From assembly GCF_963921235.1 (NCBI RefSeq), contig NC_086108.1, positions 29,948,001-30,012,000 of the forward strand: a DNA stretch of 64,000 nucleotides, written 5' to 3'. Shown piece after piece: positions 33,301 to 56,850 of this stretch (the stretch's first letter is position 1; the number at the start of each line of letters is the position of its first letter). Origin of the DNA: Mobula hypostoma (lineage: Eukaryota). The notes under the pieces were generated by a model, which did no database searches, had not been told where the DNA came from, and worked only from the letters and a program-made list of their open reading frames with translations. The translations under genes and the position numbers were made by a program.

Positions 33301-36300
33301 TTTGTGATTGGATTTTGACAATGATGGGTTGGTGGTGTATTTCCAAAGAGTATTGTTCTGTTTCATTGCCGTCCTTGTCTTTCAAGATATTAGAGGTGGT
33401 GGGCTTTTGGAAGGTGCTGAGAAGGAAGCCTTGATGAGTTGTTACAGTGTGTTTTGTTGATTGTTTGTATTGTGAATGACGATGGAGCGAGTAAGTGCTC
33501 AGTGGAAGATGGGAAGCCAGTCTAGCCGGCTTCCATGTTCTGGTGGTGTGAAGCTTCTAAAAGGTCAACTTCCATTCAATGGAGAGAATTCCCTGATGCT
33601 CCTGACTTCTCCCATAGATTAGGGAATCCACAGATGAATCTCTCAGCCAGAGTACAGACAAGACTTGTAATCTTTTGTTCTAAATGTTCCCCTTGGCCAT
33701 TTCTTTGTATCATCTAAACTGAATTGAAGTGTCTGGAGATTGGTTTGTGTAATACTTGGGACTTCTGTTTCTGGATGAAGATATTTGCAAGCACTTCAGC
33801 ATTGTCTTTGGTACTTGTGTCCTAGGCTGTGTAGTACATAAGAATAAGGACACTTATGGAACGTGCTTCCGCTAACTTGTTGCATTGTCCAACACCAGAA
33901 TCACATGGCAATGATGTACAGCTTTGATCTGGACCACTCCTACCAATCATTACAAGTTTGTCTCAATTTGTTGGAATTGTGCAAATGAGGCCAAATAGAT
34001 GCCACCCTTATCCACCTCTCTCCACCTTTGTTCTCACTACCTGCTTCAACCAACTTTGACCTTCAGGACTTGGCCAGATAGCTGTGGTGTTACTGAGAGG
34101 TCCTTGGTGATGGAAGTTGAAATCTTGCAGCTAAATGCATTAATGCCCTGTGATCCTTTCAAATATACCTTAACACGAAGCACTGATTCTTGCATGAGAT
34201 GGGATACACCAGGATGTCAAGTCTATGTTTTGTTAAAAGTGCTGATGATCACCTGGGCGATGAAAACTATCAAATAGGCTCATCAGTGGTGCTTGATTGG
34301 GAAAGAATGCTGTATTTGACCTTGCTACTTCTGTGATACTTGCTAATACTAAGCTACGAAATAGCTTCTATTCATCTTTCCAATAGTATTGATGTGAACA
34401 ATAAACAGAAAGGTTATATCTTTTATGGGCCCTATAATGTGGGAGAGCTATCAAATTCAAATAACAAATATTCCACAAAGCTTGGCATGGTTATCTTGGC
34501 GCAAAGTCCCAGGTCTTCCTAGACTGTGCCCTGGCTTTGTGTCTGAACTATTAACCTGTTTAATTCCAAATTGATTTAGTAGGATAAGAAGAGAATGTAA
34601 TGTGTGGACAGGATGTTTGAGAAGCTCACGCCATCCAGTATGTTCAAAGTTGAACTAATTTGCCTCTTCCCCAGGGTGTGATGCAAGGGACTGTGCCATA
34701 CCTTGGTACCTTCTTGACTGATCTGACAATGCTGGACACTGCACTCCCAGATTATGTTGATGTAAGTATTACTGTGTGTTGTGATTCCTTCTTTGGTTAC
34801 TGTTGTTCAAAGTTCAAAGTAAATTTATTATCAGAGTATATCTATGTCACCATATACACCCCTGAAATTCATTTTCTTGTGGGCCTACTTCAGTAAATCC
34901 GTAATAGAATAATGACCATAATAGAATCAATGAAAGACCACACCAATTTATGCAGCGATATTAAACCTGATTCTAAGCTGGGCATTCAACCAGTGTGCAA
35001 AAGACAACAAACTTTGCAAATACAAAAATAAAGAAATAACGACAACAAATAAATAAGCAATGAATAGCAAGAGCATGAGATGAAGAATACTTGAAGTGAG
35101 TCCATAGGTTATAAGAATAGCTCAATGATGGGGTGAGTGAAGTTCAGTGAAGTTATCCCCTTTGGTTCGAGAGCCTGATGATTGAGGGATAATAACTGTT
35201 TCTGAACCTGGTAGTGTGAGTCCTGAGGCTCCTGTACCACCATCCAGATGGCAGCAGTGAGAACAGAGCATGCCCTGGGTGTTGGGAGACCATGATGATG
35301 GATGCTGCTTTCCTGTGACAACGCTCCTTGTAAATGTGCTCAATGATGGATTGGGCCATATCCACTACCTTTTGTAGGATTTTCCACTCTAGTGTTACCG
35401 TACTAGGCCATGATGTAACCAGTCAATATACTCTCCATTGCACATCTATACAATCTCGTCAGAGTTTTAGATATCATGTCAAATCTTCACAAACCCCTAA
35501 GGAAGTAGTGGCGTTGTTGTCCTTTCTTCGTAATTGCATCTACTTGGTGGGCCCAGAAGTTAGAGCATCAATGAAAGTTGTTCGAAGGTAATCATCATGA
35601 AAATGAAACCATTTAAGGGATAGATTTAGAATACATTAAAGAATCTGAATGCATATGTTCAATAATTTAATGTACTGTGAAATTAACTCTGAAGTTGAAT
35701 GAAAATAGCTAAGCAGATCCTCTAAGTGCTGTCCTTCTTAACTGTGGTCCAAAATGTTGTGTATTGCACAGTTCATGCAGCTTTGTTACTTGGACGTCAT
35801 GCAACCTTTCATTCTTTGCTGCCAGTTTTGTTGTGTCGTATAAATTACGTTGCACAAAGACCACATCTTAAGCAAATTAAAAGCTATTAATGCACAATCT
35901 ACCTTCACATTATTGCAGTTTGGGTCATGGAAATTTTCAAATTACTTCTAAAAATTTTGAGGTACAGAATTAAAATTCACTCTATTATGTAGGGTTATGA
36001 GGCAAAATGATGAACAAAAATGAACAAGTGCTTTATTGAGGACAAACAAAGGTCAAGTTTTATTGCAGGTTGCTTGTTCAGAGTGAGTGGGCACAATGGA
36101 GTTGCCTTGGACGGACAAGATAATCTCTTGGATTGATACTTGTATAGTAATACTTCAAATAATCAGAATTCCCTTACCTATGGATTGCTCTTTGCTTTTG
36201 AGAGAAGAACTTGTTAGGGGTGCATCTCCTCTTGAAACATGGGTTTCACTGAGCTAAAATAAGTACTTGCATGGCAGAAAATCACATTAGAAGTAGTTTT

Positions 36301-39300: not shown

Positions 39301-42300
39301 AGCGTTGAAAATCTCCATTTGAGCCTTGTCTAAATCATACTCATTTGCCATCCTGCAGCTATAGTGTGTCCTGTGAAATAGAGGCAACATCCGATACCAG
39401 TCCCACATCTCCAAAGCCCCGGAAAAGTATGGTGAAGCGGCTCAGTCTGTGAGTATAATAAAATAATGTACTGCATCTGTTTATCTCAAAGGGCACTGTC
39501 CTTAATTGACTTTCATATTGTGTCCAAAGGCACCATCATAAATAGAGCCATATAATGCATAGCCCTCGTTTCCTTGAATCTAAAAGTTGCCTAATACAAT
39601 GAGTAAATTTAAATATGACTAGGTATGTGTAGCATACGTGTGAAGATTAGGTACCTTTGACCTCTGGACTTTGACTACCATGTGTTTGGGCAGGTTGAAA
39701 ATATAATTAGTCTATTGCTGTAGGATGATATACAGTGCCTTGAAAAATTATTCAGCTCCCACAACTACTTTCACATTTTGCTGTCTCTTTTTCGAAATAT
39801 AAAATGTAGCAGGATTCTTTTAGCTAATCTGCAAAACATTGTGCATCATGTCAAATCAAAAGAAAAATAATAAAGCCTGTCAATAATTTAGTAAAAATTT
39901 AAAACGAAAATTGTGAGGCTGGAAAGGTATTCATTCCCATTGTAATTTACTATGCTTACTTTCTTCAGGTGAAGTATTACCTTACCAACTCACCTGATTT
40001 GTTGATGTAGAAAATTGGAGGATCATCTGCTTTCAATGAATTCGTAAGAATAAATATCCCTGCTCCTTCTAAGGTCCAACAGTATTTTAAATTTTCAGCA
40101 GACCAAACCAAAATGTAGACAGAATAGCATTCAAGGCAAGTCAGGGAAATGATAATGGAGAAGCAGAAATCTGGGGAGGGTACAAAACCATCTCAGAGGC
40201 ATTGAATATACTGTAGTCTATGGTGAAAAAAGTATGAAACCACAGCCGCACTGCCTAGGTCAGGCGGCCTTTCTAGACTTAGTCACTGGAGAAGAGTACA
40301 CTTGTAAGAGAGACTACTGTGATGCCAACAGTCATTCTGAGTGAGCTGCAGAAGTCAGTGGCTACAACTGGAGATGAAGTTCATGGCTGCACAATCTCAA
40401 AGGCCTTGCACAAAAGGGGTATTTATAGAGGAGCGGAAAGGAAGAAGCCTTGGCTAAAAAAAAAAACATATCCTTGCCCATAAAGGCTGAGAAGATGCTG
40501 TAAAGATGTGGAAGAAGGTCTTGTGGTCGGATGAGACTAAAGTGGAACTTTTTGGCCTCGGCACTAAGCGGTACATGCGGCATAAATCTAATACTGCATA
40601 TCAGCCTGGTCTCACCATCCCAGCTGTAAACTATGATGGAAGTAGCATCATGCTATGCGGATGCTTTTCAGAGGCTGGGACTGGAAATCTGATCAGGACT
40701 GATGGGAAGATGAATGCTGCTAAATACAGAGAGATCCTGAATAAAAACCTGTTGGCCTCTGCTGGAAAGCTTGGACTGGGGAGTAAGTTTGTCTTTCAGC
40801 AGGACAATAATCCAGAGCAACCATAGAGTGGCTTCAAATGAAGAAAATTGATGTCCTTGTGTGGCCCAGCCAGAGTCCTAACCTTAAGTGAGGGAGGAGA
40901 AGATGGCGGCGCGACACAGCGTGCACTGCCTCTCCGGTGAAATGATATCATTTTTGTTAAATAGGGGCCGTGCACAATTCTGATTTGATGGAGACAGCCG
41001 TGAGAAGCACGGAGGAACACCTGGAGAAATTTCTAAAGTGCCCGGTTCACTGCTGCTGCTACTGTGTGATCGAGAATCTCCGGAGGGAAGGCCCCAAGTC
41101 CTCGGCTTTGCCTGTTGCTGGCGGCCGGGGCTGGGGTCGAAGCGCTCAGCGGAGATGGTGCTTGGTGCTCGGTGTCAGAGGGCTGGTCAGAGGCTCGAAG
41201 TTTTCGGAGGGACTGAGAGTCGGACTGTGGTTGGGTGCTTCCAGGATGCTGCATCGGCAAGTTTGCAGCGCTGGAAGCTTATGGCAGGGAGAGTTTTCTT
41301 CCTTCTACCGTCTGCGTGAGATGTTGGGGCTTTCGAGAGACTTTGAGACTTTTTTTTTACCGTGCCCATGGTCTGTTCTTCTATCAAATTACCGTATTGC
41401 TTGCACTGTTGTAACTATATGTTATATTTATGTGGTTTTTGTCAGTTTTTCAGTCTTAGTTTGTCTTGTGTTTCTGTGATATCACACTGGAGGAACATTG
41501 TATCATTTCTTAATGCATGCATTACTAAATGACAATAAAAGAGGACTGCGTGTCCTCATAATCTTAAAATAAAGCGATCAAACATCTCTGGTAAGACCTC
41601 AAGATTACTATCCACTGCCGCTCCTCAACTAACCTGGTACCACTTGAGCAATTTTGGAGGGAGGAATGCACAAGGCTTGCGCTATTGCATTGTGCAAAGC
41701 TAATATAGACTTGGCTGAAAAGACTATTGGCTGTAATAGCTGGGAAAGCTGGTTCAACTAAGTACTGAGCAAAGAGGGATGAATATTTTTGAACTGTTGG
41801 CATTTCACCTCTAAGAGGACCACAACCTCTTTGTGGTTTGAAGGCTTGTGTGCCTCAATGACCCAGAGGGCTATGTTTGCTGGAGTCAAGGCTTTGTGCT
41901 TTGGCTCTTGGTAGGGTCACCCATGCCAAACAGATGAAAGGATAGAGGCTGGACTAAGATTGGTCCACAGGTCTTCCATTTGCGGGTTCAGCTCAAGGCT
42001 AACCAGCCTGACTGTTTTTTAAAAAACAAAAAAATTGTTACAGAAACAGCAGTGAAGAAGCCTTCGACATCTTGGTACAACGGTATCCCTGAGTCTCAGC
42101 CCAGAACTTGCATGACTGACAGTAGTGAAAACCAAGAGGAAGTTACTGACACGATGAAGGGGGTCCTGAACGCCACCAGAGATGGAGGCCCTTCACGCTA
42201 GTGGCATTATGAGCATCAGAGAGATGGTAGACATTTCAGTTTCTAAATTTTTAATTTTGTCATGTTTTATAATATCCCTTTTTTTAGGTCTAGTATGAAA

Positions 42301-45300
42301 AAAGGAAGCATGTGATTCACAAATAAAAATTCACAGTTAAATTGATCGCAGTTCCTGGTTGTAATACTCATTTATGTGAATGAAGGGTTGGTGAGGACTG
42401 AATACTTTTACAAGGCACTATAAATTTGCAGAGCAGCTCATTCTGACACTCTAAGATGGATCTGTTTGGGTTACTCCTGCGTGTGAGATGCTGGATCATT
42501 ACTCGCAGGTCACATAATTTGTGCACCCAGGGCTTTTATCTCTACCATTTCCTGAGCAGTCCCAACCTGACTATTCTTTAAAGGGAATAGGTGAGGTTGG
42601 AAACCTCCACAGCCCCTAATTATAGCAATTATGCTCTATCTCTGTCCCCTGATCATTGGTAGCTACGACTGATTGTGGATAATGATTAACTCCATTATTA
42701 TTATCATATGATATCAGAATTAGAGAAGCAAACTGTTTTGTCTTGCGTTATCTGCATTCCCCTTTTCCCCTCCCCCAGCATTCTTTTGTCACAACATTTC
42801 CACTTTGCAAAATTGGATTTAATCAGTGAGCAGTAAGAATGGACTTAAGTAAGACAGTACAGCACACAAAATTATGAGCTTGTAGATGGAAACTGAAGTA
42901 ATTTGGATCACTGAAAATAACCAGCTTGACATTCTGCCTTTTATAGATGGGTTTCATATGGCAAAATATCCTCCAGTTTTCTAGAATTTCAATCATTGTG
43001 TCTGAAGCTATGGCCCACATTCTGAAGTGCTTCCATGTACATTGTGGATTGTTTATGTACCTACCCTGGTATTCGAGTTTGAGGTACTTCTTCTGAAGCC
43101 GAGATGAATAGCCTCCAATGAATATGATCAAGCAGTATATTTCGACATACAGTACATGTACTTTGATGATAAATTTACTTCAAACTTCGATGACTTATCT
43201 ATGCTTCTTGATGCTTAATATATGAACAACAGGGATGTTTGAGTTGTAAATAGCCTTTGCTTGCATCAAGCCATCTCTGTGAAAACCCCAGTTTACTATT
43301 TTCGCTTATTTTAGTTGATTGCACTGCAGGGCAGAAAGCAAAGCTGGAGCAGTGGGTGGGCTAATCAATTATTCCCCCTATGCTGCAGATTCTTGAAGTT
43401 ATTATCTGATGTTCTACTTTATTATGTGACTAGAATGCATGAGCTATTTTTAACTTTGCTGCTTCATAGGTAGTGACTGCTCTGTGTATTTGCTGAAGGT
43501 TTCCTGCCGCAGCATTAATTGTACCCTGCCACTTCACATCCAAAATACCTAATTAAACATTGGGGCTTAGCTGATTTGTACAATTTGAGTTTGTATATTG
43601 AGGTTGCTATTGGAAGCCACTCTACATTAGTTTTTTTTCTACTGAATATTATTTTATTTAGTTATCAATTATTTAATTACATTTGTCTCATTTTCCTCAC
43701 ATCATGCCTTGCTATAAGTAGGACATTGCATTTTATAATGACAGTGTGAATTTTAGTGGATAATGTATGAATGGGGTTTGCTTGTGTTCCAGTGGTTAAT
43801 TGCTCAGAAGTTCCAATGTTCAGAAGTTAATATAGCAATCAGAGCTAACATAACCTCAACAGGACCCGACAAATTCTTCATGGAATACTGCGCGAGTGTT
43901 GAACATAAAGTTGTATGGACATTAAAAATAAAATATGTCACCCTTCTTGGCAGATGTACATTTCCATTTCAAACCTTTATGAGGAGCTGAGCAGTTTCTT
44001 CTTTCACAAGTAACAACATGAAAGCAATTTCTTTGTCAGAAATTGCTGTCAATGTATATTAACAAAATCTTTTCTTAGAATACATGACTGATTACACTTC
44101 AAAGTGTGTCCCTGGCAAGAATTGTTAGGGTGAAGGATAATACCAGTCCTGTTGGTAATTTCCAACTGCTGCAATCTGCAGGAAGTTAGATATGTGCAGC
44201 AACACACCACTGCTCTATTTCAAGTCGTGGATGAAGTCATCAATAAAGCTGACTCCCATGCTGAATTATAGCCTTGTTCTGCTGTCCCCCTTTTCGGGAG
44301 AATCAACCACTGTGTCATTTCACCACATTGAGCATCAATCTCCCTCTTTTGTACCTCACCGTGATTATCTTCACTTTTCCCCATCATCGCGAGTTACTGT
44401 CACACTGAAACCTTCTATGGCTTCCATTCTTGCCACTTCCAAGGTTTCACAGCCTTGCTAAACTCCAGTATTTTAAAACCCTGCTTATCATTCGTATGCA
44501 GATGAAAAGAGGTTTCCGATATTCTGAGATTTATGTGATTATTGGACTATATTCTATATGAGTTTCCTTCAGTCTTACTGTGTTTTCTTTCTTCGGGCTG
44601 ATTGACGGGTGGGTGATCTGTTAATTTTTTGTGTGTAAGGGGGATTTAGGGGTTTTCATGTGACTGTCGCTGTTCTTTTCTGTGAGTGAGGGGGTTGGGG
44701 ATTATTGTTGTCAGTTTTTCTCCTGAAGGTGAGGGGGTCGGGGATTGTATTTGTTGCTTTTTTTTCTGTGAGTGAGGGGCTTTGGGATTGTTATTGTCGC
44801 AGTTTTTTTTTGTGGGTGAGGGGTTGGGGGATTGCTATTGTCACTTTTTTTCTACAGGGGAGGGGTGGGGGATTTGATGCTATTGCCGCTATTTTCTTTC
44901 TGTGGAGGAGGGGTTGGGGTGTGCAAGTTTTGTTTCTTTTCCTTTCATTGCCGGAGGTGGGGGGGTGGGGTTGATGTCTTTTCTTTCATCAACACCCGTG
45001 GCCTTTCTGTATTTAATGGCTATCTGGAGAAGACAAATATCAGAGTTGTATTGTGCATTCATACTTTGACAATAAAAAGAACCTTTGAACCTTTCTTCCA
45101 ATTGATTTATTCTGGCCGCATTAATCTCAACCCATGCCCAGTGAAGTCTTCCATGTTCTTGCTCCTCTAACTTTGCAATATCTTCTGGTCCCATGTTTAG
45201 TGCGCAATCTCTGTTAAAGTGATTCTGTCCCTTGAGAAAGCAGGATTTCCCAGTGGCCATCTACGCTCTGTCTGCCAGAGAAAGCAGAATCTCCCAGTGG

Positions 45301-48300
45301 TCATCTACGCTCTGTCCGCCAGAGAAAGCAGGATCTCCCAGTGGCCACACATTTTAATTCCACATCCCATTCCCATTCTGACATGTCTATCCACGGCCTC
45401 CTCTACTGTAAAGATGAAACCACACTCAAGTTGGAGGAACAACACCTTATATTCCGTCTGGGTAGCCTCTAACCTGATGGCATGAACTTCTGCTGATGCC
45501 CCACCTCCCCCTCGTACCCCATTTGTTAGTTATTTTTAAGCACACATTCTTTCTCTCACTCTCCTTTTTCTCCCTCTGTCCCTCTGAATATACCTCTTGC
45601 CCATCCTCTGGGTCCCCCCCCGCCCCCTTGTCTTTCTTCCCGGACCTCCTGTCCCATGATCCTCTCGTATCCCCTTTTGCCTATCACCTGTCCAGCTCTT
45701 GGCTCTATCCCTCCCCCTCCTGTCTTCTCCTATCATTTTGGATCTCCCCCTCCCCCTCCAACTTTCAAATCCCTTACTCACTCTTCCTTCAGTTAGTCCT
45801 GACGAAGGGTCTCGGCCTGAAACGTCGACTGTACCTCTTCCTAGAGATGCTGCTTGGCCTGCTGCGTTCACCAGCAACTTTGATGTGTGTTGCTTGAATT
45901 TTCAGCATCTGCAGAATTCCTGATGTTTGCTGTCCCTTGTATTTCCTATTTGTTCACCACCTTTAATGAATGGTTGTTCTGTTCAGATAAATGTAAGTTA
46001 ATAAAGCAGCAGCCATTAAATGCACCCAAATTTTGAAGACTAAATTCAGGTGTACTTTTTAAAGTTGTTTGTACATTGCAGCAAAGTGTCACTGGTTTTG
46101 TTTTTCTCTTGACACAAGTGTTATTAGCAGCATGGATAGTGTAAATTCTGATTTGGTTAATCATGTCATGAAACATACTGTGAAATTAGGAGCTTTGGTT
46201 TTCCAGACATTTAAAAAAAAGCTGAAATTCTGAAGTAAAACCATAAAATTCAGAACAGTCAGCAGGTCAAGAAGCATCTGAAGTGATAGTGTTGATGTTT
46301 CAGGCCAAAGACCCTCTCAGGTAGGGTCAGGACCATTTCTCTATTCTTGGATATGGCTTGACCTGATGACTGATACATAAATACTGATTATTAACAAGTC
46401 AGCTTGGATAGTACCAAGAAAGAATTGCTTACATTCCAATTAATTTAAATATTACTTCTCTACTGTGGAATTTCCTTTGATCTATTGTCCAAAGTGAGCA
46501 GGATCAATGGGATAAAGAAAACTGATTATTAACAAGTCAGATTCCACGCTGTACTTGGTTTCTAGATTGAGAGAAATGCAGCTTTTTAGGCTCCCAGTTT
46601 GGACAGTATCAAGAAATAATTGCTTACATTCAAATTTATTTTTAATATTACTACTTTAATGCGGAATTTCTTTTGATCTGTTGTCCAAAGTGAGCAGGGT
46701 CAACGGGGTTAGGAAAATCGTCACTTTTTTTTCACTAGTGACTTGAAAATTTGGAAACACCAATAAGGGAGCAATGTGGACGGGGTACTAGGTACTCTAG
46801 GCATAAGTGGATTATGCAATGAGTTTCACCCAAGGGTAGGAATACAGATGCTATGAACTGCTTCAGTGAAGTATTTTGACACAAAATATTGTGTGCATAA
46901 AAGTAATTAGTATTGGCAACAAGCATTCTTTTTTTCTTTTACCTTGTGAACATAACATAAGAAATAGGAGCAGAAGTAGGTTATCTGGCCTATCGAGCCT
47001 GCTCCACCATTCAATAAGATCATCTCCATCTACCTGCCTTTTCCCCATAACCTTTAATTCCCCTACTAAGCAAAAATCTACCCAACTTGGTCTTAAATAT
47101 ATTTACTGCGGTAGCTTTCACTGCTTCATTGGGCAGAGAACTCCATAGATTCGCCACTCTCTGGGAAAAGCAGTTCCTCCTCATCTCCGTCCTAAATCCA
47201 CTCCCCCAAATCTTTAGGCTATGTCCCTTAGTTCTAGTCTCACCTGCCAGTGGAAACTACTTTCCTGCTTCTCTTATCATGCCTTTCTTAGTTTTATGTT
47301 TATGTAAGATCTCCATTCATTCTTCTTGATTCCAGCAAGAACAGTCCCAGACAACTCAATCTGTCTTTATCATCTAACCCCCTCATCTCTGGAATCAACT
47401 TGGTGAACCTCCTCCGCACCATCTCCAAAACCACTATATCCTTCTTCAAGTAAGGAAACCAGAACTGCACACAGTATTCCAGGTGCGGGCTCACCAGTAC
47501 CTTGTACAGTTGCAGCATAACCTCCCTGCTCTTAAATTCAATCCCTCTAGCAATGAAGGCCAACAGTCCATTTGCCTTCTTGATAGCTTGCTGCACCTGC
47601 AAACCAACCTTTTGTGATTCATGCACAAGCACTCCCAAGTCCGTCTGCACAGCAACGTGCTGCAATTTTTTACCATTTAAATAATAAACTGCTCTTTTAT
47701 TTTTCCTTCCAAAGTGATGACCTCGCATTTATCAACATTGTACTCCATCTGCCAGACCCTTACCTACTAACTTAACCTATCTATATCTCTCTGCAGACTC
47801 TCGGAATCTTCTGCTTTCCCACTCAATTTAGTATCAGCAGCAAACTTAGAAACACTACGCTTGGTCCGTCTTCCAGTTCATTAATGCATATCGTGAACAG
47901 TTGCAGGTCCAGCACTGACCCCAGCAGCAGACTGCTCACTACTGATTGCCAACCAGAGAAACACCCATGTATTCCAACTCTGCTTTCTATTCGTTAACCA
48001 ATCTTTGATCCATGCTATTACATCACCCCCAACTCTATGCATCCTTATCTTTTGGATAAGTCTTTTATGCGGCTCTTTATCAAACACCTTCTGGAAATCC
48101 AAGTAAATAACGTCCATCTGTTCCCCTCTATCCACTGTGCTTGTTATATCCTCAATGAACTCCAGTAAGTTTGGCAAACAGGACCTGCCTTTGCTGAATC
48201 TATGCTGCGTCTGCCTGATGGATCCATTTCTTTCCAGATGCCCCATTTTTTCTTCTTTAATGATAGTTTCAAGCGTTTTCCCAACTACAGATGTTAAACT

Positions 48301-51300
48301 AACTGGCCTATTATTACCTGCCTTTTGCCTACGTCCTTTTTTGAGCAGTGGGATGGCATTTGCCATCATCCAATCTGCTGGGATCTGCCCAGCGTCCAGA
48401 GGATTTTGGTAAATCATCACCAAAGCCTCTACTATAACTTCTGCCATTTCTTTCAGTACCCTGGGATGCATTCCGTCATGACCAGGGGACTTATCTATCT
48501 TCAGGCCCACAAGTTTTCTCAGCACTACCTCTTTAGTGATAACCATTGTATCGAAGTCCTCACCTCCCATTGTATCCATAGCATCTCCCTTTAGCATGTT
48601 AGGTGCATCCTTCACCATGAGACCAATTGGTGTTTCCCAATCTTCCAGTTTCCCACTAATCTTGGCGACTTTGTCTGCATGAGCTTTTAGTTTGATGCTG
48701 CCTTTTATTTTCTTAGTTATCCAAAGCTGGCTCTCCCCACCCTTACTGTCCTTGCTTTTAACTGAAATATACTGGAGCACTGTGAAAAATCTCTTTGAAA
48801 GTCTTCCACAGTTCCTCAACCGTCCCACCATTGACCCTGTGTTCCCAGTCTATACAAGCCAAATCCTCCCTCATCCTATTGTAGTCTCCATTGTTTAGGC
48901 ATAATACACTGTGAATGTGATATAAACTGGCTAAAAACAGCAAACCGAACTCCGGCACATGTGCTTCAAGTATCTATCATGGAATTCCTCCATAGGACTA
49001 TTGTGATATCCCACTGTTAAGTCCAATTTAAATGTTTTTCAGAATGTACCTACTTCTGATTTCTGTTTTGGTCTGTTTGCTAATTAATCCCTTTCCCTCG
49101 TGCAGGCTCTTTCTAGGGTCTGATGTCATCACGAACAGTACTCCAACGAAGAGCTGTGAGCAGCCCAAATCCCCTCCAAGTGGGAGTTCTGGGGAAAGCA
49201 TGGACTCTGTCAGTGTTTCATCATCCGATTCCAACAACTCCGAAATTGAAGAGACCTCCACAACTCCCACTGACACTCCAGAAGGACCACAGCAAAAGGT
49301 GACTGAAGGGCATGACCTCTTAAACATGTTACACCAACCTAATTCATTCCAATAAAGCTTAGTTTTTAAGCTGTGTTTTGTTGAATTAGATAAAATGTAC
49401 AAGTGAAGCTTCTCAGTGTATCAATAATATCCAATCATCATAAGCTGTTTCCTGTAACTTATGTACGACAGAGGATTTAAGCCAGTCAGCACATGACAAC
49501 ACAGCAGGAGATAAAGGTGCACCATCCCTTTGGCTTTGCGTTTCTGCAAATTGTTATATAGCTGGTCTCTGCATAGTCATTAGGTTCCCTCATTTGTTTT
49601 TGCGAATTAACGTTGTAGTTCATCATCTTCTATGTAGAAGGATATTGTTTCATGGGAGGTTATTGGTGATTTAATTGGTTTTAGTAGAAAGTGCATTTAA
49701 CCTGTTTCTAAGAAAATTCAGCCTCTCAGCAGTTGAGTTGACCTTTATCTCTTAGGATCTGTCTTCAGTTTCAAAGTTCCCTTTCTATTAATGGACTTCT
49801 TCCTTTCCTCTTCCCAAGGTTTTAGTGCGAGATTACTGAAACTTGTGACCAATATATGTTATGATTACTTGCTGAAAGGTACCCTAGAGTAACTGGAAAT
49901 TTAAAAGAGATTAAGAGATTAGTTTTCTTTGTCACATGCCCATCAAGACATAACAGTGAACTGCATCATTTGGCATAAATCATTGAGGGTTGAGCGGGGT
50001 TTGGCCCCATTTGAGGATGGTGCTGGGCAGCCCGTAAGTGTCATGCTTCCAGTGCCAACATAGTATGCCCACAACTCACTAACCAAACCATAGGTCTTTG
50101 GAATGTGGGAGAAAACCAGATCACACAGAGGAAACCCACAGACACGGAGAGAACATACGAACTCTGATAGTGTTCTCATTTGTTCTGCTTTTCATTTAAA
50201 TACATAATTTGATACTCGAACTAGTTTGTCTTTTTTGTACCTTTTGAACCATTTCCATCAAACATTGGCTAATCGGGACAGCCACTTAATTGGGCCAACT
50301 TGTAATGGTCCAGATGTTCCCAATTAATTAGAATCCACTGTATAATGAATGATCAGTATTTGTTTAACGCTGATGGGTGTTGTGTTGATTGGTGGTAACA
50401 ACAAGGCGGACAGACAGATGTCAAGGTACTTGAGTATTTAGATGTGGCTTTTATAGCTGTGTTTGGAGGGTTGGGACTGCATTGCATAATGGTAGAACAG
50501 GAAATTTGGAACTATTCGAACTGTACTCATTAATAGATATCTTGCTGTTTTCCAGTCATCTGAATCTTTATCATCATGCTCGTCCATACACTCAATGGAC
50601 ACGGCCTCTTCAGGAGTCTCATCATTAATCAGTACTGTTTCATCATCGCCTTCATTCCCCCACAATCCTAAGATCCACAAGCGCTCTATCTCAGTGACTT
50701 CCTGCGGTTCAACATTATCACTTCCTGTGTACAACCAGCAGAACGAAGATAGCTGCATCATCCGGGTCAGCCTCGAGGATGACAACGGAAATCTGTACAA
50801 AAGCATCTTGGTAAGTGCATGGAACTTTTCCATGGTCAGTTTTGTCCTGATAATAGATGTGAGTCTTTGAGTATAAAGTAATTGCTGACTTTTGTTTAAA
50901 ATAATGTCACAGCAACTACTTGTTGGCAGATGAGTTCAAAATGGCTGTGTGGTTGCAGTCAATGCTACTCCATGTATTTGAGTTTTGGGCTGTAATCTCC
51001 TGTTCTGCATTAAATTTGCAATCTGCTCCCTTTCTGATGTGTGGGTAGAATAAAGTGGGATTAGTGAAACTCAGGGGTTCCCAAACTGAGCCCTTGAACC
51101 CCTTGCTGAATAGTATTGGTCTATGGCATTAAAGAGGTTGGGAACCCCTGTTGCAATGGGTGCTTGACACCTGGTGTCATCTCAGAGGCCGATTCCATGC
51201 AATATGACTGGAATGCCGTAAGTGACTCAAGCATCAAGGAGATTCTGGTTTCTCTACGAAGTGTTCTGCTGTTTTGAAGTTCTGCATTTAGTTTCTGGTG

Positions 51301-54300
51301 CATAATATTGGGGGCACTCTGTTATTCTTTGATTTGAACTCCCTTGTTTTGTTGGGAAAAGCAAATGAGCATTATGTTAATTTGATTTGATTATTTGTTC
51401 AAAATATCCCTTGTATGTAGTCAAAACTGTTGCAAACGTCAGAAAAATTGACCTGAATGACAATGTTTTAAAATTGATGGGACTTCGAGCTGCTGCAGTA
51501 GTTGTAACATTTCCTTCCTTTGCCTGCCGTGTGGCTTTTCGAGGGATTGCTGACACACTATTTACTTTCAAGCAAACCAAATTTTCAGTGCCATTTCTGG
51601 AGAAGATATGGGGCTTTTTTTAAATTTAAAAGCCTATTTGATTGGCATGCTCAGCCCCCTTCTCCCCCACCCCTCAGGGTAGGTGAAAAATAATAAATTT
51701 GAGGGCAAAGGTTACTGTTTCTCTATTCGGAAAAACTCCCCAATTCTGTTGCAGTAAACAATATATTTACCTCCTGGGGCCAGTTGCTAGCTGTTTAATC
51801 TGTGGACATGTTCCTACCAACATGTCGTGGAATTATCGTCGCCACCACCCAGGAAGCACAATGCACACCAATAAGCTGGTACATTCTGTCATTTCAGTAT
51901 CCTGTTTTCCTTGTATAATTCCAGAGTGTTTTGCAACTGAGGTTAAGATCTTGCACTCCATTCAGGAACTGAATATTGCTAACAGTTTTTACTTTAATCA
52001 GCTCCTCTGAGCTATCTTTTATGTAAACAAGAAACACTTACTGGGACACATTGCGAAAACAGTATTTAAAATCTACTGCAACACACATCAAAGTTGCTGG
52101 TGAACGCAGTAGGCCAGGCAGCATCTCTTGGAAGAGGTACCGTCAACTATTCCAGCTGAGACCCTTCGTCAGGACACAAAATCTACTGCTGTCTTACTGA
52201 TAAAGTTTTAAAACACAGTGTATTTAGAAAGAAACTGGTCTGGTGAAGTTGAATTCTTTGTACAATTTACTTGCTGAAAGAAGTAGCTGGATAAAAACTT
52301 CCATTAACCCAGGTCTGGGAGGTGATGGCATTAAAACCAGTCATTACTACTTAGCATTTTTCTAAACACTACTTGTACAATGTTCACTGACTGGTTTTGT
52401 CGTTGGATAACAAGCAGTTGTCTTTTAATCCCTGTTGAAGAATCCCCAGTCTCTTTCTAGCATCCCCCCACCCCAACTAAAACTGCAATCTACTAACATA
52501 TAAGATAAAGAGAAACATAGAAACATAGAAAATAGGTGCAGGAGTAGGCCATTCGGCCCTTCGAGCCTGCACCGCCATTTATTATGATCATGGCTGATCC
52601 TCCAACTCAGAACCCCGCCCCAGCCTTCCCTCCATACCCCCTGACCCCCGTAGCCACAAGGGCCATATCTAACTCCCTCTTAAATATAGCCAATGAACTG
52701 GCCTCAACTGTTTCCTGTGGCAGAGAATTCCACAGATTCACCACTCTCTGTGTGAAGAAGTTTTTCCTAATCTCGGTCCTAAAAGGCTTCCCCTCTATCC
52801 TCAAACTGTGGCTCCTCGTTCTGGACTTCCCCAACATCGGGAACAATCTTCCTGCATCTAGCCTGTCCAATCCCTTTAGGATTTTATACGTTTCAATCAG
52901 ATCCCCCCTCAATCTTCTAAATTCCAACGAGTACAAGCCCAGTTCATCCAGTCTTTCTTCATATGAAAGTCCTGCCATCCCAGGAATCAATCTGGTGAAC
53001 CTTCTTTGTACTCCCTCTATGGCAAGTATGTCTTTCCTCAGATTAGGGGACCAAAACTGCACACAATACTCCAGGTGTGGTCTCACCAAGGCCTTGTACA
53101 ACTGCAGTAGTACCTCCCTGCTCCTGTACTCGAATCCTCTCGCTATAAATGCCAGCATACCATTCACCTTTTTCACCGCCGGCTGTACCTGCATCCCCAC
53201 TTTCAATGACTGGTGATGCTTTTTCTCTTCCTGTCTAGCTGACCAGCCAAGACAAGACGCCTGTTGTAATCCAGAGAGCCATGTCCAAGCACAATCTGGA
53301 AGGAGAGCATTCAGAGGAATATCAGCTTGTCCAGGTCATCTCAGAAGATAGAGGTGAGGAATGAAAATCAAGGTTCTACAATGCTTAAAAAAAGGCAGTC
53401 TTCTGACTGATTTCCTTTGAATACTGGAGAAATCAAATTTCTTGAACTAAATTCACATTGACCCAGAATTACTTACATGATCCTGTCTGGAGTAATTCTG
53501 TTTTGTTGGCATATTAGAGATGCTGCCACAGAACTCTTAAGAACCCAAGTTTGATCCTGACCTTCACTGCTGTCTGTGAGGTTCTGTCTGTGATTGTGTA
53601 AATTTCCATAAGACCATAAGAAATAGCATCATTTGATTTCATGTCTGATTTATAACCCCTTTCAACCCCATTCTTCTGCCTTCTGCCCATGATCTTAGAT
53701 GCCCTTACTAACAAGACCTCCACTTTCAGTATATCTAACGACTTGTCCTCCACTGCCAGCTGTGGCAATGAATTCTATAGATTCACCACCATGACTAAAG
53801 AAATTCCTCCTCTTCTCTTTTCTAAAGGGACAACCTCCTCTCCTGACACTGTGCAGTCTGGTTCTAGGCTCTCCCACTATTTGAAAAATCCTCCTTTTAA
53901 TATTTGGTAGATTAAAATGAGATTTTCCTGCCCCCCCCCCCCCACCATTCTTCTAAACCTTAGCAAGTACAGGCCCAAAGCCATCAGACGCTCTTCATTC
54001 CCAGGATAATTCTTGTAAATCTCCTGGGCCCTCTCCAATGCCAGCGCATCCTTTCTTGGATATGGGCCCCTATTTCCTCTGGGTGCTCCAATTTTTTCCT
54101 GTATTTAAGGATATGTCAATAAATGAATGGGCCCTGCTCTAGGTGGGCGGCAGGGGTATTAATAGAGTTGATAAGCATGTGTACAAGAATAGGTTGTACG
54201 GGAATATGGGTGGGATTCCAGACTCAATGGTTCTGAATAGCAATCTCTTTTGTCACAAGTAATCATGATAAATGATTTGGATAATACAGAGTATACCAAA

Positions 54301-55425
54301 TTTATTTGGTTTTAATTTATTCCTTTAAAAATTGGTTTGCAGAAGTTTAAAAAATTTGACTTTACTCCTTGCTCAAGGCAAGAAAATTTGGTTGTTTCAG
54401 TGCTTGTAATTCATGATGCCCTCTGCTATTACCATCTGAAAAGTGAATATATAAGCCAAATGAAATTCGGCTTCACATTTCATGTCTTTTGATGTGTTCA
54501 TGGGTAAAATTCTTGCAGCTCTGAGTCTAAAATTAGCTAAGTAGAATTCTCCCCAAAAAACTGAAAATTAATGGCAGAACTCACAGTTACATTGCGTTCT
54601 TATTTCTTCTATAAAGGCACTGATGGTGAGCCTTCTCGTATAGTGTTGCTGACATTTTGGTGCTTTTTCTGTCTGGTGTTTATAGATATCCAGTTTATAT
54701 TTCCTGCAACAGAAATTCCTGTAATTGTTTTTTTTTAAGCGATGATGTAGTAGTATCTTTCAGTCTTCATTACTGAGATCAGTAAAATAGCCCTTGATGT
54801 TGAATTGTCTTAAAATGCATTTGGTTTATTTCTTGTTCTTCTGGAGTGAAAGCTAGAAGATATTTCCCACTCTTTTCTTGATTTGACTTCAGACCGGTAT
54901 CAGTCCTGTTGCCTCTGATCAGGCTGCTGAAGTTGCCAAATTTTTTCCATTTTATCAAAAGAAAAACATGTTAAAGAAAGTGGCATATACAAATCTGTGG
55001 AGGAATGATAGTGGCAATAAATGTGTCTAAACAAAGATGTATTTTTTAAAAAATTCATGTTGAACCTATTCAAAATGAAGTACAGTAGATACTGGTATTT
55101 CAGCTGTAGATTCTAATCCAAACCCTTGCTTAAACTAAGTCCGACTGGTGAGCTACTCTTAATTCTATATCTAGTTCTGTAGACTTGTACTCACATAACA
55201 AGATAGTCATGTAAATATATATCACCTTTTTTTTTTCCAGAACTGGTAATTCCAGACAATGCCAATGTGTTTTATGCAATGAACACCTCTGTGAATTTTG
55301 ACTTTATTCTGAGAAAGCGGAGCCTAAATCGACAGGTTAAACTGCGGAGTCGATCCAGCTCTACGCTACCGAGAACTGCCAAAAAAGGAATAATGACAAA
55401 CAGACTGAGCAAAGTTACGCTGTGA
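12172..55425 (+). CDS. RGL1: Ral guanine nucleotide dissociation stimulator-like 1, spliced 5'-partial CDS (16 exons, 2190 nt incl. TGA)
   Basis: The joined exons read [55 protein letters not shown]...[19 protein letters not shown]...[25 protein letters not shown]...[15 protein letters not shown]...SKVTL*. This closely matches vertebrate RGL1 as I recall it, rather than RALGDS, RGL2 or RGL3. All introns are GT-AG with consistent phases. Confidence 0.95.
12740..12945 (-). mobile_element. V-SINE (HE1-like) fragment
   Basis: gaaactggagcacccagaggaaacccatgcagtc...acaaactccatacagacag; same family as 1178-1452. Confidence 0.7.
13088..13232 (-). mobile_element. LINE 3'-end fragment (Rex/Babar-like) with (TTCAAAG)n tail
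   Basis: ttcaaagttcaaagtaaatttattatc... motif also at about 30618, 34805 and 58025; at 34805 it is contiguous with Rex-type ORF2 sequence. Confidence 0.6.
14326..14522. mobile_element. Short palindromic Penelope-derived element with ~17-bp TSD
   Basis: Inverted arms around CTGACGA-AGGGTCTCGGCCC-GAAA (14385-14408); flanked by taaactaat(t/a)gaacaac at 14309-14325 and 14523-14539. Confidence 0.85.
14854..14931 (+). CDS. RGL1: RGL1 exon (78 nt)
   Basis: ttgcag|GTACGGAAAC...ATTAGGAA|gtaagt; [26 protein letters not shown]; too short for the ORF track. Confidence 0.92.
14950..15840 (+). mobile_element. Penelope-like retroelement, 5'-truncated, with GIY-YIG endonuclease and 3' pLTR
   Basis: ORF 15073-15399 [29 protein letters not shown]...[19 protein letters not shown]; pyrimidine-rich 3'UTR; hammerhead motif at 15704-15739 (G12 replaced by T). 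Confidence 0.9.
16204..18260 (+). mobile_element. hAT (Charlie/Buster-type) transposon relic, interrupted by a Tx1 element
   Basis: TIR-like start caaggtttctcaac; after the insert the sequence encodes YLSLGFT...[25 protein letters not shown] (BED zinc finger of Buster/Charlie transposases). Confidence 0.75.
16785..18040 (-). mobile_element. Tx1-like (L1 clade) retrotransposon fragment
   Basis: GC-rich; minus-strand peptides [15 protein letters not shown], [15 protein letters not shown](C)ERLQ (zinc knuckle) and [17 protein letters not shown]. Confidence 0.75.
18320..18725 (+). mobile_element. Rex/Babar-like LINE fragment, internally deleted
   Basis: gagctgattgtggacttcagaaagggtaag (ELIVDFRKG) and a 3' end homologous to 58610-59650. 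Confidence 0.7.
19750..19943 (+). CDS. RGL1: RGL1 exon (194 nt), REM domain end
   Basis: ttctag|CGCAATAGCC...CTGGACA|gtaaga; [17 protein letters not shown]...[10 protein letters not shown]. Confidence 0.95.
21134..21315. mobile_element. Short palindromic Penelope-derived element with 13-bp TSD
   Basis: Inverted arms tgctggaggaactca / tgagttcctccagca around a degenerate hammerhead at 21221-21255; tca(c/t)tcagtgcaa at 21121-21133 and 21316-21328. Confidence 0.8.
22491..22624 (+). CDS. RGL1: RGL1 exon (134 nt)
   Basis: gtacag|ATGGTTAC...GATGCT|gtaagt; ends [10 protein letters not shown]. Confidence 0.93.
23995..24210 (+). CDS. RGL1: RGL1 exon (216 nt), RasGEF domain
   Basis: ttttag|GAATTGTTC...GCCCAG|gtaaca; [22 protein letters not shown]...[10 protein letters not shown]. 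Confidence 0.95.
24222..24795 (-). mobile_element. Rex/Babar-like LINE 3' fragment
   Basis: Reverse-complement homolog of 59090-59650. Confidence 0.85.
26391..26494 (+). CDS. RGL1: RGL1 exon (104 nt), RasGEF domain
   Basis: cattag|GAATGCAGG...TCAAA|gtaagt; [34 protein letters not shown]. Confidence 0.95.
26695..26764. mobile_element. hAT-Charlie-type MITE
   Basis: TIRs CAGGGGTTCCCAA...TTGGGAACCCCTG; related copy at 51072-51150. Confidence 0.75.
27189..27273 (+). CDS. RGL1: RGL1 exon (85 nt)
   Basis: gattag|AGACAGC...ATGAGG|gtaagg; [28 protein letters not shown]. Confidence 0.94.
28760..29042. mobile_element. Palindromic Penelope-derived element
   Basis: cacacaaaatgctggaggaactcagcag / ctgctgagttccttcagcattttgtgtg arms; hammerhead remnants on both strands (28822-28858 minus, 28912-28947 plus). 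Confidence 0.8.
31245..31334 (+). CDS. RGL1: RGL1 exon (90 nt)
   Basis: tttcag|GAAGGCACT...GATATG|gtaggt; [30 protein letters not shown]. Confidence 0.95.
31838..33306 (+). mobile_element. Penelope-like retroelement, degenerate RT C-terminus, GIY-YIG and pLTR
   Basis: Encodes [28 protein letters not shown] and [15 protein letters not shown] remnants; hammerhead relic at 33173-33208. Confidence 0.88.
34675..34761 (+). CDS. RGL1: RGL1 exon (87 nt)
   Basis: ccccag|GGTGTG...GTTGAT|gtaagt; [29 protein letters not shown]. Confidence 0.95.
34805..35560 (-). mobile_element. Rex/Babar-like LINE 3' fragment
   Basis: ORF 35153-35365 [36 protein letters not shown]; (TTCAAAG)n tail. Confidence 0.8.
36432..36745 (+). 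mobile_element. Rex/Babar-like LINE 3' fragment
   Basis: catccaggcaatgctctc...ttcaggaacagttattaccc, homologous to the 35153 ORF. Confidence 0.65.
36800..36832 (+). CDS. RGL1: RGL1 short exon (33 nt)
   Basis: tcctag|GGTGGTTTGATCAACTTTGAAAAGAGGAGAAGG|gttagt; [11 protein letters not shown]. Confidence 0.93.
37359..37730 (+). mobile_element. RTE/BovB-related SINE-like element with ~12-bp TSD
   Basis: 3' part resembles the BovB/Sauria tail (gagaaggc...ttgccaag); flanked by atattt(t)tcccag; inverted copy at 61440-61818. Confidence 0.7.
38348..38469 (+). CDS. RGL1: RGL1 exon (122 nt)
   Basis: tgacag|GAGTTTGAG...GAAAG|gtaaga; [19 protein letters not shown]...LTDEE. Confidence 0.95.
39359..39448 (+). 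CDS. RGL1: RGL1 exon (90 nt)
   Basis: ctgcag|CTATAGT...AGTCT|gtgagt; [29 protein letters not shown]. Confidence 0.94.
40888..41562 (+). mobile_element. CpG-rich non-autonomous retroelement nested in Tc1
   Basis: Starts gagggaggagAAGATGGCGGc; ends ...gacAATAAAagaggactgcgtgtcctcataat; flanked by cttaa. Confidence 0.7.
41808..42231 (+). mobile_element. RTE-derived non-autonomous element nested in Tc1
   Basis: RTE-like 5' motif tggtagggtcacccatgccaaacag and 3' agatggaggccctt; flanked by catttca (41801-41807, 42232-42238). Confidence 0.6.
44560..45092 (+). repeat. Retroelement 3' region with degenerate ~40-bp G-rich minisatellite
   Basis: About 8 units like ttttctgtgagtgagggggttggggattattgttg; ends tactttgacaataaa...ctttgaac. 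Confidence 0.6.
45234..45930 (+). mobile_element. Penelope-like retroelement 3' fragment with tandemly reiterated 5' junction
   Basis: Highly similar to 15192-15840; 44-bp unit repeated about 2.6 times at 45234-45348. Confidence 0.9.
45795..45830 (+). ncRNA. Minimal type I hammerhead ribozyme, intact core
   Basis: Helix I AGTC/GACT; core CTGACGA; helix II AGGGTCTCGGCCT; GAA plus palindromic ACGT; GTC cleavage triplet ending at 45826. Confidence 0.8.
46383..46718. repeat. Diverged local tandem duplication (~120-140 bp)
   Basis: aattgcttacatt...ttgtccaaagtgagcagg occurs twice; actgattattaacaagtcag at 46383 and 46521. Confidence 0.75.
46948..48905 (-). mobile_element. CR1-clade LINE, older subfamily, degenerate
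   Basis: ORFs 47881-48831 ([13 protein letters not shown]) and 47300-47728 (HLEYCVQFW); cataag-type tail. Confidence 0.9.
49106..49298 (+). CDS. RGL1: RGL1 exon (193 nt), Ser-rich linker
   Basis: gtgcag|GCTCTTT...CAAAAG|gtgact; LFLGSDVIT...[14 protein letters not shown]...PQQK. Confidence 0.92.
49912..50165 (-). mobile_element. V-SINE-related fragment
   Basis: gtctttggaatgtgggagaaaaccag...gaggaaacccacagacacggagagaacatacgaact. Confidence 0.6.
50556..50810 (+). CDS. RGL1: RGL1 exon (255 nt), linker and RA domain start
   Basis: ttccag|TCATCTGAA...ATCTTG|gtaagt; [16 protein letters not shown]...HKRSISV...[19 protein letters not shown]. Confidence 0.95.
51072..51150. mobile_element. hAT-Charlie-type MITE
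   Basis: TIRs CAGGGGTTCCCAA...TTGGGAACCCCTG. Confidence 0.75.
52080..52177 (-). mobile_element. Solo Penelope terminus (antisense) with 12-bp TSD
   Basis: Reverse complement of 45796-45891; aaaatctactgc at 52068-52079 and 52178-52189. Confidence 0.8.
52511..53215 (-). mobile_element. CR1-clade LINE 3' fragment, young
   Basis: Uninterrupted ORF2 C-terminus 52607-53206; near-identical to 5550-6245; (AGAAACAT)n tail. Confidence 0.95.
53239..53353 (+). CDS. RGL1: RGL1 exon (115 nt), RA domain
   Basis: gtctag|CTGACCAGC...GATAGAG|gtgagg; [20 protein letters not shown]...[11 protein letters not shown]. Confidence 0.95.
53550..54070 (-). mobile_element. Composite of SINE and CR1 3' relics
   Basis: tgtggcaatgaattctatagattcaccac and related CR1 3' motifs, diverged. 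Confidence 0.6.
55241..55425 (+). CDS. RGL1: RGL1 terminal coding exon (to TGA 55423-55425)
   Basis: ttccag|AACTGGTAATT...[35 protein letters not shown]...LSKVTL*. Confidence 0.95.
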
Positions 55426-56850
55426 GGGAGACCGACTTCAGTGCATTCATCTCCGCCAGAGATGGACACTACCACTCAGTATTGAGAGCCCTGGAATGTA
55501 TGTGAATAAATATCACCTAGGCAGTATTTTACTTAATTTACCCAACAACATGAATGGCATTGACCAAACTTTAAACTTTTGAGAATAGTGCTTGTTCATT
55601 GTTGAAATGTTTTGCACATCAGCCTTGTTTAGAATAGGCTGAGTTTTATTCAGGCTGGAGGATCATTGGCAGGCTTGTCACAGCCCCAGTGAAGATCAAG
55701 TGAATCAATTCAAAGAAGGGGAGGAAAAACTTTATTTACTAACCCTGTTGACTAATTGTGGTTGTTGGCTCTGTTTCCTGCAAGGTCACATTAGAACTAG
55801 TGACTGCACTCCAGTCATTGGCCGGATGATGAATACTTTTAGAAAGTGTTTGGATTGGCCTTTAAACCCTTCAGCAGATGTTTCCTGCCTTTCACCCCTC
55901 CCTGCCTAATGATTTAATCACTTCTGGATGTACAGAATTAAACCTGCCTTCAACGAAGGACAACTGCAAGAAATGATGAAAGGAGGGCGTATTGTGCCAA
56001 TAATGTTGCACTTGTCTTGAAATGCTGGTCAGCTTTATACTGAACTGTTATTTTGTATGTACATTTGTAAATGTAAGCTGTTTAGGAGGGGCTGGGGGAT
56101 CTTTACAAGATGCAGAGGGGACCAAATTATCTGGATTATGAACATTATGACCATTTTTGTCCATCATTTTATCTGTTTTACGACTAGAACTGCCATTATC
56201 TTGTGGGCTCTGCCTGCTGTAACCTATCAAGCAAGCAATTCCCTTGTGCAGGATTTGACAGTCAAGAACCTAATCTTACGTTTGCTCATTGATCTTTTAA
56301 CTTCAGTGCAATCATTTCTCAGGTGTAGGGCATGTTCACTCCTCAGATACTTCCCAACCAAAAAAAACTTCAAAATAGCTTAAATGTGAAGAATGTCTCA
56401 ACAGTATTTAGTTTGTTTCAAATTTGGTTTTGCACTATGTATAAATTAAATGACACAAGTGCTTGATGCACTTTTACAGTTTCGGTATCTTTTTGCGCAA
56501 TTCCCACAGTTTTGGTATCCATGTGCCTATGAGCTGTGATGACACTTTGGGGAGCTCTCAGTCCTAGATTTGGAGCCCTTTGTTTTCTCTTTCCTCATCC
56601 TATTGATCTAGTAGATCCCTGTCAATGATTTGGTCATCAGATGCAATCACCCCAAACCACCAACTACTTAGATTAAAAATCTGGGCCATGTTTGTCAGCA
56701 CTGGGCATAGACATTATGATAAAATTGTCTAAGGTATTGGTGTAACTCCTGAATGTATACTTTTGTAAATATTTTTCCATATTCCTTGTATAATTGTATA
56801 ATTTGTTTTAAAATAGTTACTAAAAATAAATTTCATTGCATCAGCTTACT
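55426..56850 (+). other. RGL1: RGL1 3'UTR (putative)
   Basis: Repeat-poor sequence after the stop, ending in a U-rich block with several TGTA motifs followed by AATAAA. Confidence 0.6.
56825..56830 (+). terminator. Polyadenylation signal AATAAA (distal, likely major)
   Basis: AATAAA preceded by multiple TGTA elements and followed by a CA dinucleotide and a U-rich tract. Confidence 0.65.

Follow-up and report, generated by a model that had tools for sequence, protein, structure and literature searches.

Transposable elements that supply or displace splicing branch points are already known, from mammals and from minigenes, and the closest systems are summarized here. In OGDH intron 4a, MIR insertions introduce or eliminate branch-point competitors (PMC7969005), and new URA branch points can come from a retroelement lodged between the acceptor and an older branch site if no AG follows, which resembles the locus described below. 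That system, however, was engineered as a minigene, its branch points are distant and its lariats have been mapped, whereas the present case in RGL1 is a natural insertion before an ordinary acceptor, with candidates taken from sequence. At NUP160 and SLC2A9, polymorphic Alus 31–41 bp from exons (PMC6326789) likewise place a young retroelement where branch sites usually lie, and filled alleles can be compared with empty ones; one Alu locus of that kind showed no effect. Their exons are alternative or near-constitutive and are skipped more, while RGL1 carries a LINE, its alleles are compared between species, and no skipping was seen in assembled contigs. The intronic underrepresentation zones (PMC3088655) include an antisense bias of LINEs near exons, and the RGL1 insert is of the short antisense kind that survives; in contrast to our single locus, that result is a mammalian genome-wide statistic, and the word 'branch' is absent from the main text. 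At BLOC1S2, a MIR and an AluSp contain predicted, lineage-specific transposon branch points (PMC6822395), as at RGL1, but BLOC1S2 gains a new exon whereas RGL1 keeps an old one. Finally, 5′-truncated inserts of the CR1/L2 clade (PMC4245944) are described with truncation at microhomology, as found here, and with short target-site truncations, as is probable here; the latter occurred in 6 of 30 ZfL2-1 inserts in HeLa-RC cells. Such inserts usually leave a 3–5 bp duplication, while the RGL1 insert has none.

Our literature search, which was thin on subscription journals, found no report of an insertion at the RGL1 locus or of a CR1 case of this kind in cartilaginous fish, and the accessible text of PMC13343379 holds no passage on tails or Mobula. 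Two closely related rays that stand one insertion apart represent a dated natural experiment on branch-point redundancy. The pair bears on the question of whether, in a vertebrate intron, a weak branch site from a transposon can take over from a perfect one without penalty; no phenotype is implied by the insertion.

Here, we analysed a stretch of 64,000 nucleotides from Mobula hypostoma (the window; NC_086108.1), which holds most of an RGL1 gene on its + strand. The ray RGL1 protein aligned in 15 tblastn segments across 12172–55422. The last three exons agree with annotated RGL1 of Mobula birostris at 184 of 184 residues, and with the annotated proteins of Hypanus and Hemitrygon at 181 and 180, respectively. 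For the exon at 53239, the 115 nt and the RA domain named in an initial annotation of this DNA were both borne out; the exon matches solved RGL/RGL1 RA domains (E 4e-15) as well as Pfam RA. RNA contigs fix the penultimate intron at 50811–53238 and the last at 53354–55240. The features of this region are collected in Table 1.

Table 1. Features around the penultimate RGL1 intron (window positions; negative distances are to the exon at 53239)
Feature	Position	Strand	Basis or remark
Longer copy of the insert's LINE family, taken as reference	5542–7990	−	RVT_1 at 6298–7116, E 9.7e-32
Upstream RGL1 coding exon	50556–50810	+	Donor GT 50811; spliced contigs of two organisms, tblastn with ray RGL1
Second ACTAA motif, possible QKI half-site (speculative)	52476–52480	+	First base at −62 in the model of the empty allele
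Perfect TACTAAC branch motif, branch A 52496	52491–52497	+	−42 in the empty allele, −743 now
Host spacer	52498–52509	+	One AG at branch+7/+8; organism B contig matches through 52509
5′-truncated LINE, CR1-type (candidate label), antisense to RGL1	52510–53212	−	703 nt, 706 with microhomology; absent in organism B
3′ tandem-repeat tail, 8-nt unit	52510–52531	−	About 2.6 copies; identical unit in the copy at 5542
C-terminal 202 codons of element ORF2, uninterrupted	52607–53215	−	Translation; matches to reverse-transcriptase proteins
AG-free zone before the acceptor	53156–53236	+	81 nt, 57 nt from the element
Element-supplied branch candidate CAATGAC, A 53209	53204–53210	+	−30; 3 Watson-Crick pairs and 1 wobble pair to the U2 motif
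Branch candidate TGGTGAT, A 53216	53211–53217	+	−23; last five bases host, predating the insert; 2 Watson-Crick and 3 wobble pairs
Microhomology GTG common to element and host, 5′ junction	53213–53215	+	3 nt; organism B contig and 5542 copy both match
Host polypyrimidine tract and acceptor AG	53217–53238	+	94% pyrimidine at −20 to −3, highest of 14 acceptors listed
Penultimate RGL1 coding exon, part of the RA domain	53239–53353	+	115 nt; structure and Pfam matches, RNA contigs, ray proteins
Last RGL1 coding exon	55241–55426	+	RNA contigs

The initial annotation had proposed that a young CR1 separates a perfect TACTAAC from the pyrimidine tract. The core of this claim holds, and an empty orthologous allele was found in a close relative. 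The insert sits 26 nt before the 115-nt exon in the penultimate RGL1 intron. Read on the − strand, it comprises the end of ORF2, a short 3′ untranslated part and then the tandem-repeat tail. Positions 52515–53215 are 94.6% identical to 5542–6244 over 703 nt (36 substitutions), and the similarity stops at 53215. The loose ends of other family copies run on past 53215 with element sequence, so that the insert is 5′-truncated; both young LINE copies in the window are truncated within ORF2.

CR1 LINEs carry a short tandem-repeat 3′ tail in place of poly(A), and the clade has an ORF1 with esterase/PHD domains. With its 202-residue frame, the insert matched 1404 proteins at E ≤ 1e-40. Most of those listed possess PF00078 and some PF14529 or PF03372; the listed matches, on which no clade names appear, include bird (Mycteria, ~42–54%) and ray or shark (68–85%) proteins, and we take the bird LINE to be a CR1. 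An ORF2 of the endonuclease plus reverse-transcriptase type, the repeat tail and 5′ truncation with microhomology are all present, while the usual CR1 target-site duplication (typically 3–5 bp, not obligatory) is missing and the empty allele has two extra letters instead. CR1 type is therefore a candidate label, based on the protein matches, the tail and general features of the clade. As judged from the open 202-codon frame, the copy-private letters and the empty allele in a close relative that differs at 11 of 963 flanking nt, the insertion is young. At three or more letters (52600, 52813 and 53181; 40 of 205 rows listed) the copy stands apart from nearly the entire depth of its family, which fits an insertion younger than the split from that relative.

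Several further observations concern the insert and its family. Self-comparison of the window revealed three related LINE copies (5542–7990, 46954–48850 and 52510–53215), with ORF2 on the − strand in all of them, antisense to RGL1. A stop-free frame of 242 codons (52607–53335, − strand) extends the element ORF2 over the opposite strand of the pyrimidine tract and of most of the RGL1 exon, probably by chance. Folding of the element 3′ end gave z = −2.10 (6 of 200 shuffles as good). A search for a cryptic exon in the insert returned one pyrimidine run with AG (53031–53046) and zero GTRAG donors, and no such joint occurs among the 15 of 352 joints listed.

Comparison with the orthologous intron of related species, which had been suggested as a check, was carried out by querying public runs with the element-free right flank. 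The listing comprised 24 runs, all as contigs, and four were compared over 50450–55650. One of these four, from organism E, has zero depth in the bin 53234–53407 and no listed piece at the junction, and no listed piece of organism C or E covers TACTAAC; such gaps in cover count neither for nor against the insertion. In organism B, a close relative, one unbroken 965-nt DNA contig (depth 6.5) spans the insertion site without the insert. Its letters 1–391 correspond to 52119–52509 and letters 394–965 to 53213–53784 (flanks of 391 and 572 nt); 52510–53212 is absent, and two letters of its own stand at that point. Over the flanks, 11 of 963 nt are not the same in contig and window, 8 of them in the 391-nt left piece. 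Organism B thus carries an empty allele, and the insertion is real. The extra DNA is built like a LINE insertion, and the empty state is therefore inferred to be ancestral. An exact-pattern scan of metagenome contigs for this acceptor gave 0 matches.

The junctions can now be placed more closely. Similarity to the 5542 copy does end at 53215, where the initial annotation had set the CR1 5′ junction, but 53213–53215 is equally host sequence. At the other end, 52498–52509 had been removed as CR1 tail; the organism B contig refutes this and shows host DNA there. The contig also shows two letters rather than an overlap at the site, in keeping with the missing target-site duplication. Loss of two target bases would be the simplest reading, the alternative being a change in organism B's lineage. 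In the proposed course of events, target-primed reverse transcription would have placed the element here once the lineage had separated from that of organism B, the element's 5′ end being joined through the 3-nt microhomology with loss of the two bases.

TACTAAC is present in the sequence where the initial annotation had reported it. With the window's letters taken for the motif, 13 + 2 + 26 nt follow the branch A in the empty-allele model, which places it at −42 instead of the earlier estimate of about −25, and the displacement comes to 701 nt, not ~720 nt. That reading had been tied to a motif some 20–40 nt from the acceptor, and the heptamer of the empty allele ends 40 nt before the exon, at the very edge of this range. 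If the 8 differences of the left piece fall evenly, organism B has a ~87% chance of keeping TACTAAC unchanged. Branch pairing was scored against a U2 motif that we presumed from general knowledge. On the window's letters, TACTAAC is the sole 6/6 match within 70 nt of the empty-allele acceptor, while 0 of 14 present RGL1 acceptors have such a match at −15 to −50. The heptamer occurs five times on the + strand, compared with ~2.5–2.8 expected in 64 kb; its probability in one given 25-nt slot is ~0.001.

The rules applied to this ray intron are mammalian ones. About 90% of human branch points fall in a zone of 19–37 nt (PMC7969005), and the A at −42 lies just outside it. In the same work, a UACUAAC at −41 favoured the splicing of a minigene, and in RAI14 an ACUAAC at 34 or 43 nt was usable in either position (PMC13004596). 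AGs very close to a branch point are bypassed (PMC1431707; PMC10655562); the sole known AG after TACTAAC in the empty allele, at branch+7/+8, stands at the edge of the tolerated range given there. If the letter of organism B next to 53213 were A, an AG would arise at branch+15/16, which would argue against TACTAAC as the sole site. Since the heptamer is so rare by chance in a slot of 25 nt, it is more likely than not that TACTAAC served as an ancestral branch site. At present, the orphan motif has nine AGs but no pyrimidine tract on its downstream side (the AGs within 50 nt), which makes its use for a new acceptor unlikely; ahead of this purine-rich and AG-rich tail, it is likely silent.

Elsewhere in the gene, a further TACTAAC (53706–53712) lies in the next intron, in an old repeat-rich stretch (~53600–54050) far from acceptors. 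Near-perfect motifs occur at other RGL1 acceptors, TACTCAC at −48 (55241) and TACTTAC at −35 (23995), where strong motifs also stand rather far from the AG.

We give an even chance to the reading that the insert moved a likely ancestral TACTAAC site from −42 to −743, and that the exon is still included, likely through CAATGAC at −30 with the host A at −23 in second place. Branching would then have shifted from TACTAAC to −30 and/or −23 without visible cost. Such tolerance would be explained by the strong tract and AG being intact, the antisense element end being free of AG for 57 nt, and the presence of two TGA-type adenosines in the usual zone. The A at 53209 is element sequence within that zone, and no AG follows it before the acceptor. 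From their pairing, neither CAATGAC nor TGGTGAT appears to be a strong site. CAATGAC is an ordinary match; at 8 of the 13 other acceptors the best candidate is stronger, with 4 or 5 Watson-Crick pairs (the comparison covers 14 RGL1 acceptors, one near 38340 being excluded).

It counts against this reading that −42 lies beyond the usual zone and that the host A at −23 adjoined the tract before the insertion. TACTAAC may thus have been secondary. In the corresponding alternative, which is plausible although on balance doubtful, branching took place mainly at the host A at 53216 all along, TACTAAC was secondary or incidental, and the insertion upstream of a complete acceptor unit changed nothing. 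This A adjoins the tract, within the usual zone, in the empty allele too, the window holds more + strand copies of TACTAAC (five) than the ~2.7 expected, splicing looks intact in the contigs, and 68% of human introns contain several branch points (PMC10655562). Against it, the −23 heptamer makes just 2 Watson-Crick pairs, chance would seldom place a perfect heptamer within 25 nt of the zone, and perfect motifs function at −41 to −43 (PMC7969005, PMC13004596). The initial annotation had held that a replacement branch was needed, such as the tgAc at 53209 or a junction-made tgAt at 53216. The need for one follows only if TACTAAC was the main site, as it probably was; the host candidate at −23 predates the insert. 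The site at 53216 is not a product of the junction; the A with its GTG..T context is host sequence already present in organism B's empty allele, and the insertion changed only heptamer positions −5 and −4.

Two further ideas about the element end were set aside. Among 2345 simulated truncation points, 8.4% give at least 57 nt free of AG (median 16) and 27% would give such a branch candidate, and neither the AG-free end nor the supply of a candidate can be called special. The antisense strand of the family has 43 AG per kb, compared with 100 on the sense strand. A hairpin predicted to span the junction of element and host (53191–53219) pairs both candidate adenosines, but it is not significant (z = −1.17; 26 of 200 shuffles as good); it uses 53195, where the insert and the 5542 copy differ.

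Splicing of the exon was followed in the assembled contigs. A contig of the window organism (depth 188.7) aligned in blocks at 50554–50809, 53238–53351 and 55239–55650 with GT..AG ends and 0 differing letters; none of the 24 listed runs is recorded as RNA, and this one is RNA by the program's guess, with joins that have GT..AG ends. The contig of another species, organism C, has the same joints and includes the 115-nt exon. No exon-skipping or cryptic joint was found among the 15 of 352 joints listed, in contigs that drop rare forms and give no inclusion rate. The skipping check proposed earlier, run here on contigs, therefore found the exon included across both junctions. Inclusion is the main form seen, and splicing looks intact. 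A transcript whose stop codon lies in the last exon escapes nonsense-mediated decay. Without the 115-nt exon, translation would run for 2 codons before a stop within the last exon (55241–55426), so a skip product would not be hidden by decay. Another contig of the presumed RNA run crosses the left junction of the insert by 29 letters (the program's rule asks for 31), which suggests, if weakly, that the RNA came from a carrier of the insert. Joints between 52740–52770 and 53790–53930 were set aside: they stem from further repeat copies, which match two repeats in the window.

These contigs bear on a second alternative, in which the insertion makes the allele mildly hypomorphic: a part of the transcripts would skip the exon or retain the intron and encode RGL1 without most of the RA domain, and the allele may still segregate. 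The insert is young, a minor form would be compatible with the contig data, and Alu insertions 41 and 31–34 bp upstream raised skipping at NUP160 and SLC2A9 (PMC6326789). However, one unbroken spliced contig covers both junctions without a skip or cryptic joint among the 15 of 352 listed, and annotated RGL1 of Mobula birostris is identical to the last three exons of the window (184 of 184). We regard this alternative as improbable; the hypomorphic allele considered in the initial annotation has left no sign in the contigs within the same set of joints.

A third alternative concerns regulation. The ancestral intron may have held an element of two ACUAA motifs (starting at −62 and −46) that was contested between Quaking and SF1, with tissue-specific skipping as the result, and the insertion would have removed it and made the exon constitutive. 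Both ACTAA motifs lie on the host side of the junction, and RAI14 provides a case of QKI repression through tandem ACUAAC motifs at 34 and 43 nt (PMC13004596). ACTAA pairs within 25 nt are not enriched on the + strand, however (3 compared with 1.7 expected), and the upstream motif reads ACTAAA, not ACTAAC. The exon is present in 123 of 123 retrieved proteins of at least 600 aa, in a retrieval that was blind to the exon but from annotation that favours full forms, and the organism C contig likewise includes it. RGL1 is absent from the main text of PMC13004596, and our search for literature on RGL1, Quaking and splicing found nothing evidently related. We consider this alternative very improbable. 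The same holds for the regulatory rewiring it would entail, hardly to be expected, in which the lineage lost a Quaking-repressed ACUAA site, dropped a decay-immune RGL1 without the Ras-binding domain, and gained a constitutive exon with a CR1-derived branch.

The window contains other repeats in addition to the LINE family of the insert. Another family is represented by three + strand copies (14929–15850, 32000–33310 and 45236–45930) that are 71–89% alike, and their open frames recall what we presume to be Penelope-like GIY-YIG elements. Intronic fragments at 8360–10120 (− strand) and 16900–18010 contain ORF2-like pieces, presumably of the L1/Tx1 type, and a frame at 40491–40826 (+ strand) resembles a transposase fragment, which we take to be Tc1-like. 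Finally, two short local duplications or tandem repeats were observed at 44665–44919 and 46400–46717, 76% and 85% alike, respectively.
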